The position numbers and the translations under genes are program-made. Below are positions 44,632-47,600 of a stretch of DNA of 64,000 bases, piece by piece. The stretch lies in NCBI GenBank assembly GCA_965213685.1, contig CBDBZY010000016.1, positions 1-64,000 of the forward strand, written 5' to 3'. The DNA comes from a bacterium (GTDB taxonomy: Bacteria; UBA8248). The first letter of the stretch is position 1. The number at the start of each line of letters is the position of its first letter. The notes beneath the pieces are model-generated. The model was not told the DNA's origin, did not search any database, and saw only the letters and a program-made list of their open reading frames with translations.

Positions 44632-47600
44632 ATGGAGAGCTACCAGCCCAAACGGAGGTACTTGCACACCTCGGCACAAGTGGGAAGTAAAGTGATAGTG
44701 TACAGCGGAGTGACGGTAGACGATACAGTAGAGAAGAGGAAGCGCTTGGCCTCCATGGTGGAGGTCTTCCATCCCCACAGCGAGCACTGGGAGGCCAAGC
44801 AATCCAATGGACAGACCCCAGCACCAGGGCTGCGCGGTGCAGCCAGCGCAGTAGTCAACGACCAGCTGTATTCGTACGGAGGGAGAGATGGTGACGGCAA
44901 CTTCCTTCATTCCTTGCACCAGCTGAGCGCCAAGACCTACGAGTGGCGCGGACTGAACGCTAAAGGTCCTGCATCACCAATGCCGAAATGGGGTGCGGCA
45001 ATGGTCGCCTGCGGGGACGGTCTAGCGCTCTTTGGAGGCTACGGCGTACCACGCGGCCCCACCCAGCGCGCCTCATCGCTCATCAAGGATACCGCGTACA
45101 CTGACGGCAGTGGGTGGACCAATGAGTTCCACATCTACCACCTCAATGAAGGTATGCATACATGTACAACAATGACTAGAATTTGCAGCTTGCCTTTGGT
45201 TGTTTGTTGTTTGGGTATACATTACCCCAGCTCTTCCCAACACTGTTGGCTTTAGGCTTTTGAGGTGCAGGTTTTCCCTAGGGTGTAGTTCTGGTGTTTG
45301 TGGTGGATGTATTCTGAAGCCACAATCACTAAGGGCTCACCTTGGGGTACTTAAACCAGTGGTGCTAGAGCAGCTTGTACAGTCATGGTGCTGATGAGAG
45401 GCAACCAGCTTGAAGCAGCTGTCTGCCATTGCCTGGCTTGCTCTGGCCCACCTGATTTGATCATGTACATACATGCACACTGTACTCACTGAACTGCACT
45501 ACAACATGTGTAACACTTTTGCATTGATGGCTCCCTGTAGCTAATGAGTGTAGTACTGCTGTTCCCATTCCTCATTCTGCTATGGCATGTTAGCACTCCC
45601 CACACTGCAGGTGTGTGGAGCTCCCCTGCCACCACTGGAGAGAGACCTCCTCCGTGTTCTGACTTCTCCCTCACCTCCATAGACCATAAAAGAGCTGTCT
45701 TCTTTGGAGGGTTCAATGGAGAGCGGGGCAAGATGAATGATGTGTACATCATTGACCTACAGAGTATGGTATGTGAGCTGATGAATTATTGATTGCTGGT
45801 ACAGCATATGATGTAGTACATGTATCTTGTACATATTGGTTACAGAGCCCAGACAGACATGTGTGAGTGTTGCATGGGCTCATACATGTGTGTCTGGGCT
45901 GTGCAAGTTATTTGTTGTCAGTTGAGGCTGGTATAGGGTTGCAGCTCTGTTTGCAGTAGTACAAGAGATATGACTAATGGGTTTGCATTGTGTAGCAAGT
46001 TCCAAAAATAGTGTCATTCCCAAGATTTGTCCCTGCAGCGTTATTTATTGCACTAGCCTTAACTCCAGCGGCCAATGTGTTATCTGGTACACTGTGTTGT
46101 GCATTGTGGATTGAGTGCATGTAGTATTGCTATGGCCAGTACAGCTGTCCTGGTAGTGAACTACAGTGTGCATACTGCAGCAGATGGTGACGTGTGATAG
46201 TGTAATGAATGGTTAGCTTTATGCAGCATATATTGGGTCAAAGGTGAAATGGGAGGCACCTGGAGTGGTGGCTAGTGTGTGTGTGTGGCAGTAGAAAGGT
46301 TGGCAGTTGGAATGGTGGTGGAGAGACAGTTTTCCTTTCCTTGTTAAAGCTTATTGATACGTGCAGGGTTTGATACACTTGACGTGCAATATGGCCTGTG
46401 GCAGTGGATGGGAAGAGAAGTTGGTCTCTGTTTGTGTAGTTATATGCTGAACTGTCTGTCACTGCAGCACTGGACCAAACTCAACAAGTCAGGAGGAGGA
46501 CCTTGGCCAGAGGAGAGGTCATGGCATGCTGCTTGCAGTCTGAACTATGGCGAGCAACACCCTCAACTGCTGGTCACTGGGGGATGGGGCAGACAGAACA
46601 GACAGGGCAAGGTACTGGGGGATGCCTGGATTCTGGATGTGGACAGTGGGAGGTGGAGGAAGGTGAGGAGGAAGTGTAGCTGTACTGCACACTCTGTGAT
46701 GGTTACTATACACATAGCATAGTCCTGTGGTAGTGCTTTGGCTGATTGAGTGCATCAGATAAAAGAGGTAGTGAAGTGCTGCAATGTAGCCTGAGACAAT
46801 GCTGTGGCATTGTATGCCTGTATGTATGTAGACAGTGTGAGTTATGTTACATGTGCATAGCACATGTACTGGGTAGTGCTGAACACACTGTCTGTGTAAC
46901 ACTACAGTTAACATCTCTCCCCTCCAGGTGAGGGACACTCTACAGCCTCACTGGGGACACTCAGCATGTGCCATACAGATTGGCCCTAATCTGACAGAGG
47001 TCATCATGTTTGGAGGGAGGAACCTCCTGAATCGTCTCCTGGATCGTCTTGGAGGCACTGTGCTGGCTGATACAACTGTACTGCAGTTCAGTGAGTGGTG
47101 TGGGGTTTGTAGAATGTGTGCTGACGAGGGAGGGGAAGAGGGAAAGTGTGGGAAAGGGGAGATTGGGAGGAGAGAGTAGGGACGGGAGGCATGAGGAGGA
47201 GTGGGAGGGAAGGGAGCAGGTCATGTGATGAGCTATTAGCACTGCCTTACATCAGTAAATAACTAGGTGAGGAGCCACCTGTTAAATCAGGCTTAGTTGC
47301 ATTGCCTTGCCTTGGATTTGTAAGCCAAGCAGCTGGGCTGCCTTGGTAGCTGAGTTGGTAGAGCACTGGCCTAGACAGCCAGTGGTTGGTGGCAGGTTTG
47401 AATCCTGTCCGGGGCAGCTCAGTGTTGTCTGCCTTGGATGTGTGCCATTTATGATTTGAGCATGGACATACATGTATGTACACATTCCAATTAGTGTGCA
47501 ATAATTGATATTTTCTTTTTTGATTGCATTCCCCTTTGTTTTGCATGCCTTTAGTCTTATCTATGGCTGCCTGTGATACACACAGTCATAATGTAATGAC

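Follow-up and report, generated by a model that had tools for sequence, protein, structure and literature searches.

This analysis concerns a gene family found within a 64,000-nucleotide stretch of DNA (termed here the window), which constitutes the first 64 kb of the 527-kb contig C16 of assembly GCA_965213685.1 and whose genes encode a Kelch propeller followed by predicted Roc, COR and Death-like domains. Inside a homogenised block that spans most of the gene, and in exon 1 within each of two exon-1 types, almost all of the variation between copies lies in two short patches per Kelch blade. These patches exhibit an excess of non-synonymous change, in-frame changes in length and no stop codons, are rich in Tyr, Trp, Gly, Cys and Phe, and are shuffled among copies. 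This pattern is probably the outcome of concerted evolution combined with diversifying selection upon the ligand face of a ROCO-type receptor family, which forms a tandem array within a sponge genome.

Variation is concentrated in two patches per Kelch blade

Self-comparison of the window reveals a tandem unit that occurs about three times, and a tblastn search locates five close copies of the gene: copies 1 and 2 within the window (at 10500 and 44632), copy 3 further along the same contig (C16:66605), and copies 4 and 5 on a second contig, C4 (C4:8144 and C4:37096). The Kelch reading frames are intact in copies 2 to 5, and copy 2 serves here as the reference (Table 1). An alignment of the five copies shows introns and exon framework to be nearly invariant; nearly every copy, by contrast, has its own version of two patches in each blade. 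The first patch is a pair of codons flanked on one side by a conserved R/K/C and on the other by the H/F/A with which strand 1 opens (that is, the end of the 4-1 loop), and the second consists of the 3-16 codons that follow the GG doublet (the 2-3 loop).

The contrast is evident at each level of description. Mean pairwise difference is 0.025, 0.031 and 0.011 in introns 1, 2 and 3 and 0.082, 0.061 and 0.105 in exons 2, 3 and 4; nucleotide diversity (pi) is 0.317 in loop codons versus 0.033 in other codons and 0.011-0.031 in introns 1-3. Variable sites are not spread uniformly over the propeller: 36 of 41 loop codon columns vary versus 29 of 179 others (Fisher p=2.9e-18), where 8 of the 29 are an artefact of joining copy 1 across the insertion that interrupts it.

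An earlier note on this DNA had called attention to hypervariable Kelch loops alongside near-identical introns in copies 1 and 2, and re-measurement of that pair reproduces every figure it gave. Intron 1 differs at 8 of 458 aligned bases and by a single 1-bp indel. In exon 2, 17 of 155 bases mismatch and 3 bp are gapped, and its protein changes read PPCAWF/PPPCSDF and GGYNEEQGDTN/GGFNGERGKMN, as reported. Exon 3 likewise shows RSSH/RSWH and, past its GG, a 9-bp indel; exon 4 shows PHQGH/PHWGH and, again past GG, an indel of 30 bp, at which copy 2 has a pair of tandem 12-mers (CTCCTGRATCGT). Copy 1 is indeed a pseudogene, having suffered a 1-bp deletion in exon 3, a 10-kb insertion into exon 4 and the arrival of a long terminal repeat (LTR) retrotransposon in intron 3.

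Related genes vary at the same positions. An array of about 14 tandem copies on contig C18 (about 7,900-773,000, minus strand, with copies spaced roughly 40-80 kb apart) encodes the same Kelch and Roc-COR layout at 25-30% identity to the window family, its own copies being 91-97% alike in DNA. Flanking introns in this family have a pi of 0.027-0.041; all ten of the 12-nt segments with pi>0.15 fall inside exons (nine at the counterparts of the two loop classes, the tenth at a 1-2 loop), and no such segment occurs among 612 flanking intron columns. In public collections at least 365 sequences related to the Roc-COR exon occur, and 71 related to exon 1. The data set analysed comprises 5 + 14 genomic copies together with 71 exon-1 proteins. 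Of the 173 positions compared among 16 close exon-1 relatives (79-93% identical), the 20 most variable include 17 that an AlphaFold 2 model of exon 1 places in 4-1 or 2-3 loops, and mean entropy is 0.16 in strands and 0.09 in 3-4 loops versus 0.49-0.53 in 4-1 and 2-3 loops (Mann-Whitney p=9e-4).

The residues that occupy the patches are far from random. Dipeptide sites are enriched in Tyr (3.6x), Trp (3.3x), Cys (2.7x), Phe (2.1x) and Gly (1.8x) and depleted in Lys, Asn, Glu and Thr, and distinct dipeptides number 39/73, 31/76 and 35/75 at the sites compared. Neither the four intact copies nor the 14 copies on C18 contain a stop codon or frameshift within a patch, and changes in length are in-frame. 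The biased dipeptide composition, together with this absence of stops and frameshifts from the patches of intact copies, argues for a selective filter.

Public sequencing runs show the same behaviour. In four runs from four studies, contigs covering the introns match the window with 0-3 differences over 150-570 bases, and numerous contigs break off at a patch or depart from the window inside one. For example, another letter occurs at 45658 in 13 contigs of run X1 and 19 contigs of run X2, other letters occur at 46520, 46521 and 46523, and some contigs end at 46584 or 46949.

Concerted evolution of a 3.1-kb block

Between the two exon-1 types (copies 1, 3 and 4 versus copies 2 and 5), exon 1 is saturated at synonymous sites, the proportion of synonymous differences (pS) being 0.47-0.59. 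Past approximately 45100, however, the same gene pairs differ by only 1-3% in introns and about 3% at four-fold degenerate framework sites; past approximately 48179 similarity falls to 77-91% or vanishes, except between copies 1 and 2. Groupings of the copies also shift along the gene: exon 1 separates copies 1, 3 and 4 from copies 2 and 5, the DKRR segment separates copies 1 and 5 from copies 2, 3 and 4, and the Roc-COR exon joins copy 1 with copy 2. The four-gamete test gives a minimum number of recombination events (Rm) of 17 in 2.8 kb, and of 5 and 7 inside single exons of the C18 family. Because exon 1 is saturated, groupings change along the gene and Rm is 17, homogenisation of the block is attributed to recombination: gene conversion or unequal crossing-over holds these 3.1 kb at 97-99% identity among paralogues whose first exons diverged anciently. 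Recent duplication, which might otherwise account for introns that are about 98% identical, is rejected inasmuch as exon 1 of the same pairs is saturated.

The two ancient exon-1 types are about 35% apart in DNA and occur in the order A-B-A on C16 and A-B on C4, both types being joined to the same homogenised blades 4-6. Shortly before its exon 1 ends, copy 5 passes from B-type into A-type sequence, and it carries a 45-bp tandem duplication at that place.

Homogenisation between repeats within a single gene, as seen in fungi, was also considered and rejected: exons 2, 3 and 4 do not match one another when 44001-49000 is compared with itself by BLAST, and the blades are unlike.

Origin of the DNA

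Contig C16 has a GC content of 50%, and the 7.97-Mb assembly bin from which it comes mixes bacterial contigs of 65% GC with contigs of 43-54% GC. The region is eukaryotic, as indicated by its GT-AG introns, microsatellites and transposons. Near-identical sequence is held by 20 public runs from 12 studies, several of which are labelled 'sponge metagenome'. These labels, together with the eukaryotic features, identify the window as DNA of a sponge host that has been binned with a symbiont. No RNA run is on record among the 20 holders, nor did any of the 24 runs considered prove to be an RNA holder, which says nothing either way about expression. About 4.5 Mb of host DNA is searchable in the assembly. 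The marker-based figures for the bin (94% complete and 3.7% contaminated) fail to reveal that about half of its 7.97 Mb is host DNA.

Searches elsewhere yielded little. The exact 25-base exon-3 pattern has no match in metagenome contigs, and a protein-profile scan of these contigs returned only six distant loci (30-42% identical). Among 41 further genomes from the bacterial family to which the bin is assigned, a DNA search gave a single 40-base low-complexity match, and a search for full-length protein relatives returned only two unrelated fungal Kelch proteins.

Given a contig in a mis-binned assembly, and given that near-identical repeats are hard to assemble, one might suspect that the pattern arose from collapsed or chimeric assembly of a multi-copy family. 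This is very improbable: the patch differences are all in frame; variation falls at the same positions in the C18 array, whose 14 copies span 760 kb, and in 71 proteins of different public assemblies; and four independent runs yield contigs in which the introns are again invariant and branching occurs at the patches.

Domain architecture of the encoded protein

Exon 1 of copy 2 matches the KLHDC2-type Kelch family PF24681 with 69.9 bits (cut-off 50), and an AlphaFold 2 (AF2) model of it comprises three four-stranded blades with a predicted local distance difference test (pLDDT) score of 93. The closest fold to this model in the PDB is that of KLHDC2, with a query TM-score (TMq) of 0.82; KLHDC2 is also the top solved sequence for a profile of the 71 exon-1 relatives (E=4e-33). 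Exons 2-4 individually fall below the Pfam cut-off, yet match Kelch families, with one blade per exon; blades 4-6 are assigned from the motif within these exons (FGG, TGG and FGG), the AF2 model representing blades 1-3 only.

Downstream, a large open reading frame (ORF) contains a P-loop (GIMGSGKTT) and a DTGGQ motif, which correspond to the P-loop and DxxG elements of a Roc G-domain. The Pfam Roc model matches copy 2 weakly (20 bits versus a cut-off of 27) and matches 30 of 44 relatives (best E=2.7e-7), and the Roc chain of LRRK2 matches the region with E=1.8e-4 over the P-loop only. An AF2 model of the exon has a mean pLDDT of 74, and all 35 of its Foldseek matches at E<=0.001 are ROCO proteins, among them LRRK2 (4.9e-11) and Chlorobium tepidum RocCOR (2.6e-10; the RocCOR tandem 3dpu has a target TM-score (TMt) of 0.60), with the COR domain by itself (3dpt) at E=8e-7 and TMt 0.64. 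COR is recognised at the level of fold only, as Pfam and profile searches of copy 2 and its relatives found none by sequence. Death was matched at E<=0.01 in ORFs of 7 of 44 relatives. A kinase domain was not found in the gene copy, nor was a BC-box or other cullin-binding part seen. Taken together, these comparisons and models predict an intracellular ROCO-type receptor with the architecture Kelch(6)-Roc-COR-(Death-like), in which the Death part and the splicing of the last exons are putative.

The genome contains 19 Roc-COR exons. A further copy of this exon (C57:16525-18379, minus strand), with 83% protein identity to copy 2, lies on a separate 18-kb contig on which no Kelch exons were detected. 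In copy 2 the Roc-COR frame ends in a low-complexity run of the (GGGAGG)n type, read as GREGGREG... (window 50800-51000).

The variable positions correspond to a known ligand pocket

The topology of a four-stranded antiparallel blade brings its 4-1 and 2-3 loops out on one and the same face of the propeller. The earlier note had proposed that the variable loops form the ligand-binding face, and comparison with the nearest solved structure favours this, the hypervariable positions aligning with residues of the KLHDC2 degron pocket. In the accessible portions of two structural reports, the degron or ligand pocket is described as including Lys147, Tyr163, Arg189, Trp191, Arg236, Arg241, Ser269 and Trp270 (PMC11377542, PMC12169847). 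A profile alignment to KLHDC2 chain 9bc9_A, at an offset of +13, gives a letter match at 8/8 of these named residues, all eight of which fall within the two loop classes and six of which fall on positions that are hypervariable here. Specifically, the hypervariable dipeptide is the counterpart of Ser269/Trp270 and of Lys147, the residue directly following GG that of Tyr163 and Arg236, and a variable position after GG that of Arg241; a dimorphic S/R site corresponds to Arg189 and a conserved Trp to Trp191. Based on this alignment, the variable positions are homologues of a known ligand pocket.

Selection within the patches

Selection was assessed using crude counting tests, in which counts over copy pairs are non-independent. 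Pooled Nei-Gojobori (NG86) estimates give, for the loops, a proportion of non-synonymous differences (pN) of 0.23-0.45 against a pS of 0.18-0.25 (ratio 1.1-2.4) and, for the framework, a pN of 0.017-0.027 against a pS of 0.04-0.07 (ratio 0.29-0.51); omega is thus about 2 in the loops and about 0.4 in the framework. Among codon pairs one base apart, the ratio of synonymous to non-synonymous differences is 45:485 in loops and 347:397 elsewhere. When minimum numbers of state changes are counted instead, non-synonymous and synonymous changes stand at 94:13 in 59 loop codons versus 43:29 in 272 others (Fisher 2.4e-5), and the synonymous share of the loop changes (13/107) is lower than the approximately 0.22 expected (p=0.007). 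Neither of the outcomes that the earlier note had named as fatal to its proposal, an even spread of variable sites over the propeller and a loop dN/dS of at most 1, was obtained. The diversifying selection on a variable sensor that the note had advanced, with targeted conversion as its alternative, is thereby supported, the loops exceeding the framework both in clustering of variable sites and in dN/dS, which is above 1 in the former and 0.3-0.5 in the latter.

Could the loops instead be drifting under relaxed constraint in recent duplicates? Surface loops usually tolerate change and copy 1 is a pseudogene; nevertheless, loop pN is about 10 times the divergence of introns and four-fold framework sites (0.01-0.04), and neutral drift cannot surpass the neutral rate. 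Moreover, the 94:13 ratio of minimum changes, the biased residues, the lack of stops and frameshifts, and the invariance of the 3-4 loops (entropy 0.09) all speak against relaxed constraint, which is accordingly rejected as having almost no chance of being correct.

Several points weigh against diversifying selection acting on otherwise homogenised paralogues. Apart from the non-independence of pairwise counts, recombination precludes a trustworthy tree. The excess of change relative to synonymous sites inside the loops is modest (1.1-2.4), and reaches about 10 only when introns or framework are taken as the neutral standard. Four-fold sites themselves differ more often in loops (32/260) than in the framework (174/5160), a 3.6-fold elevation that may reflect a locally raised input of mutation or conversion, and four-fold divergence is lowest right beside the patches: 17/1586 within 1-3 codons versus 109/1845 at more than 8 codons. 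Such low synonymous divergence next to the patches is the opposite of what simple models of old selected islands within converted DNA predict. The loop limits were drawn after inspection of the data, though the same positions stand out in two independent data sets. Some of the five copies (those on contig C4) could belong to a divergent haplotype rather than being paralogues. Finally, the structural model is confined to blades 1-3, with blades 4-6 resting on the motif, and the Pfam Death match is sub-threshold (19.1 bits versus a cut-off of 22.6, E=1.5e-3). With regard to the synonymous sites, the raised four-fold divergence in loops can be a by-product of repeated amino-acid replacement, and the low divergence of the flanks possibly reflects either nucleotide-level constraint upon them or a small number of sites.

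These features of the synonymous sites would also fit a dedicated mutational mechanism--either templated micro-conversion that uses the perfectly conserved flanks as arms of homology or hypermutation targeted to the patches, in the germline or in somatic cells--with selection acting merely as a filter. Patch borders are razor-sharp, with four-fold divergence of 12.3% in the patches, 1.1% in the three adjoining codons and 5.9% far away, and the elevated synonymous divergence inside the patches points in the same direction. Low divergence of the flanks fits the nucleotide-level identity that homology-guided micro-conversion needs. Furthermore, 28% of loop codon pairs differ at two or three bases versus 1.6% elsewhere, four-gamete violations occur between adjacent bases, and patch variants turn up again in varying combinations among exon-1 relatives, with shared blade-1 dipeptides, for example, occurring together with different blade-2 and blade-3 patches. 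On the other hand, reading of the alignment discloses no flanking motif common to the patches, and self-BLAST of the window reveals neither a bank of donor cassettes nor extra copies of the patches (the assembly holding about 4.5 Mb of host DNA). Substitutions involve all four bases, and entire codons have been inserted or removed, with neither the A-specific signature of a diversity-generating retroelement (DGR) nor the C-specific signature of a deaminase. The raised four-fold divergence may, as noted, follow from replacement, and the non-synonymous excess and biased composition require selection in any case. On balance such a mechanism is unlikely. More unlikely still is a specific version of it, in which the patches are rewritten by a dedicated process consisting of short conversion templated among hundreds of family members, with the nucleotide-perfect flanks as guides, or of somatic hypermutation confined to the loops; if true, this would endow sponges with an anticipatory, combinatorial Kelch repertoire, a third scaffold beside immunoglobulins and lamprey variable lymphocyte receptors (VLRs), at the base of the animal tree.

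Mutagenesis by, or membership in, a DGR system was examined separately and rejected: there is no second copy of a patch in the window, the sole reverse transcriptase (RT) there is that of an LTR retrotransposon, and all bases vary along with insertion and deletion of codons.

A model for the receptor family

Under concerted evolution combined with diversifying selection, recombination would homogenise most of the gene and reshuffle the patches, and selection would keep the ligand pocket of each paralogue different. Because the flanks are identical, a short conversion tract would alter only a patch. Judging from the domain families involved, a ligand bound at the Kelch face might switch the Roc-COR GTPase, whereupon the Death domain could recruit adaptors for a cell-death or inflammatory-type response. 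The family may thus constitute a germline-encoded repertoire for non-self recognition, with microbial, viral, symbiont or allogeneic targets, this immune role likewise being suggested by the domain families.

The same evolutionary pattern could serve another role, either allorecognition or the management of resident symbionts, or else as KLHDC2-like adaptors for the termini of endogenous or viral proteins. KLHDC2, as the nearest relative, recognises C-terminal degrons; allorecognition is what the fungal HNWD genes, evolutionarily the closest analogue, carry out; and the host sponge lives with dense symbionts, as the mixture of host and 65% GC bacterial contigs in the bin attests. An adaptor role is disfavoured by the lack of a recognisable BC-box or cullin-binding part and by the predicted Roc-COR-Death module that follows the propeller. 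Roles of this kind are considered rather unlikely.

If the interpretation in terms of diversifying selection is correct, the family suggests a previously undescribed class of animal recognition receptors, probably with an immune-type role, and it suggests a function for Roc-COR-Death modules such as that of human DAPK1, a relative of LRRK2. Divergence of about 30% in patches of 6-48 bp within DNA that is 97-99% identical provides a test bed for studying, at codon resolution, concerted evolution together with diversifying selection or, alternatively, a targeted mechanism. The alignment to KLHDC2 also provides a structure-based prediction of the residues that contact ligand and, by analogy, suggests C-terminal peptides as candidate ligands.

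Other features of the window

The coordinates of the copy 2 gene, its patches and the remains of copy 1 are collected in Table 1.

Table 1 Features of the reference gene (copy 2) and of pseudogene copy 1, in window coordinates
Feature	Position	Strand	Basis or remarks
Copy 1 pseudogene, exons 1-3	10500..12413 (10500-11046, 11505-11659, 12229-12413)	+	exon 3 has lost 1 bp near 12289
LTR retrotransposon in copy 1 intron 3	12483..17124	-	terminal repeats 241 bp long and 94.6% alike; Pfam zf-CCHC, RVP, RVT_1, RNase H, rve; 5-bp duplication TGTGG
Copy 1 exon 4, first part	17326..17398	+	cut by 10-kb insertion 17399-27557
Copy 1 rest of exon 4, exon 5 (28233-28325), Roc-COR exon and downstream region	27564..32341	+	self-comparison
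Exon 1, Kelch blades 1-3, type B	44632..45151	+	ATG at 44632, GT donor after 45151; PF24681; AF2 model
Homogenised 3.1-kb block (end of exon 1 to intron 5), five copies	45100..48179	+	BLAST identity 95-98% within the block, 65-90% for exon 1; downstream 77-91% or unmatched
Intron 1, part of homogenised block	45152..45610	+	8-16 differences in 448-458 bases, all 10 copy pairs
Exon 2, Kelch blade 4	45611..45768	+	AG/GT borders, phase 1; Kelch Pfam matches
Blade 4 dipeptide before strand 1	45658..45663	+	AW/SD/AY/AW/CG in copies 1-5
Blade 4 post-GG (strand 2-3) loop	45712..45735	+	alignment of five copies
Exon 3, Kelch blade 5	46468..46662	+	splice borders, Kelch Pfam matches
Blade 5 dipeptide (R-xx-H)	46519..46524	+	SS/SW/GG/WG/LG in copies 1-5
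Blade 5 post-GG loop, 9-bp length difference	46585..46617	+	alignment of five copies
Exon 4, Kelch blade 6	46928..47090	+	splice borders, Kelch Pfam matches
Blade 6 dipeptide	46952..46957	+	QG/WG/YG/GG/RR in copies 1-5
Blade 6 post-GG loop, 30-bp expansion of two tandem 12-mers in copy 2	47018..47065	+	alignment of five copies
Exon 5, linker after propeller	47819..47911	+	splice borders, comparison of copies
Large exon, predicted Roc GTPase and COR (approximate start)	48692..50977	+	open frame 48422-50980
Death-like domain exon (weak, putative)	51300..51641	+	open frame 51300-51644; splicing to gene assumed

The retrotransposon in intron 3 of copy 1 looks complete, encoding a zf-CCHC gag, protease, RT, RNase H and integrase. 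The 10-kb insertion is composite, contains an ORF with a hAT dimerisation domain and a gag-protease-like ORF, is bordered by a 6-bp target duplication (ACAGAG), and splits exon 4 exactly at the start of the blade-6 strand that precedes the post-GG loop. The LTR pair has 7 mismatches in 241 bases, versus 1-4 in 265 between intron 3 of copy 1 and that of other copies, which hints at conversion after the insertion; intron 1, with 8-15 in 458, is no different from the LTR figure and no conclusion is drawn from it.

Intron 4 contains a sequence resembling tRNA-Ser(AGA), detected by ARAGORN at 47339-47418 (plus strand) and conserved in 5/5 copies. Because its depth in public runs is about 10x that of its neighbours, it is probably a tRNA-derived short interspersed element (SINE). 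The same intron ends, in all copies, with a (CT)n tract of about 70 bp that abuts the exon-5 acceptor (window 47740-47818). The roughly 8-10 kb upstream of each copy are also repeated (1-9700, 35342-43581 and 53446-64000), with 77-98% identity, a high GC content and many AG/CT microsatellites; Pfam gave no match for the 3/3 long ORFs tested in this upstream repeat, nor for the ORF at 33024-34061.

Comparison with known systems

Sponges are early-branching animals that live with dense microbial communities, and the expanded sensor families known from them consist mostly of NLRs and SRCR proteins. The family described here would add to these a large tandem family of ROCO type, in which the Kelch pocket appears to be retuned in every copy.

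Among individual proteins, human KLHDC2, a CRL2 receptor for C-terminal Gly-Gly degrons, shares the Pfam family (PF24681), sequence similarity, the fold and the placement of its pocket at two loop classes. It is, however, a single conserved gene coupled to Elongin B/C, whereas here the propeller is fused to a predicted Roc-COR-Death module, the genes form tandem arrays and the pocket varies by copy. DAPK1 (kinase-ankyrin-Roc-COR-Death) is alike in having a repeat domain before Roc-COR and a Death domain (in the sponge gene a putative Death-like one) after it; unlike DAPK1, the sponge gene has no detected kinase.

At the level of population genetics, parallels are the hypervariable leucine-rich repeats (LRRs) of plant NLRs and the genes of the major histocompatibility complex (MHC), where introns are homogenised while peptide-binding exons stay diverse. 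The pattern is the same in these systems, but their folds and signalling modules differ, and the contrast seen here (about 30% versus 1-3%, with sharp borders) is extreme.

Compared with ROCO proteins, among which Dictyostelium Roco proteins carrying Kelch or WD40 propellers stand close beside DAPK1, the sponge family has a Roc domain that is weak by sequence and a COR domain recognised by fold only, and it is a large tandem family with hypervariable sensor loops. In the accessible text of one review, Kelch motifs flank Roc-COR in a group with a Roc-COR-kinase core, comprising Dictyostelium and metazoan Roco proteins, and that text does not report hypervariable sensor loops in a large tandem family for Roco proteins (PMC6320773). 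A sponge transcriptome study lists 'Kelch motif containing' and 'DEATH domain-containing' genes, without further detail in the portion available, among genes responsive to microbe-associated molecular patterns (MAMPs) (PMC6208332). No description of a sponge Kelch-Roc-COR-Death family was found in the literature searched, from which subscription journals and supplements were excluded.

Similar in chassis are the LRR-ROCO candidate immune receptors of brown algae, which, according to the part of the report consulted, encode one repeat per exon, show diversifying selection at sites on the ligand face and undergo shuffling (PMC11378527). These likewise mount a repeat sensor upon a ROCO chassis; the sponge genes differ from what is described there in having a fixed six-blade Kelch propeller, variation at the level of patches and a putative Death-like domain.

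Closest in mode of evolution are the HNWD NLRs of Podospora (het-d, het-e and het-r), which combine HET, NACHT and WD40 domains and, in the excerpted account, evolve in concert, with four hypervariable surface codons per repeat under diversifying selection (PMC12222747). As far as that account goes, both systems couple a propeller sensor to an NTPase and a death-related effector, the latter putative in the sponge, and both confine their differences to a few hypervariable codons on a predicted interaction surface within otherwise near-identical DNA. In HNWD genes, however, the homogenised units are the WD40 repeats within a gene, whereas here homogenisation takes place between paralogues, including their introns, and the blades are unlike; and WD40, NACHT and a fungus are replaced by Kelch, Roc-COR and an animal. 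The sponge family therefore works like the fungal-type high-internal-conservation (HIC) receptors, whose repeats within a gene are 80-100% identical, but is not a member of that class. It is, in short, a diversified receptor family of a known kind; what is new is the sensor scaffold and the architecture, and their occurrence in an early-branching animal.

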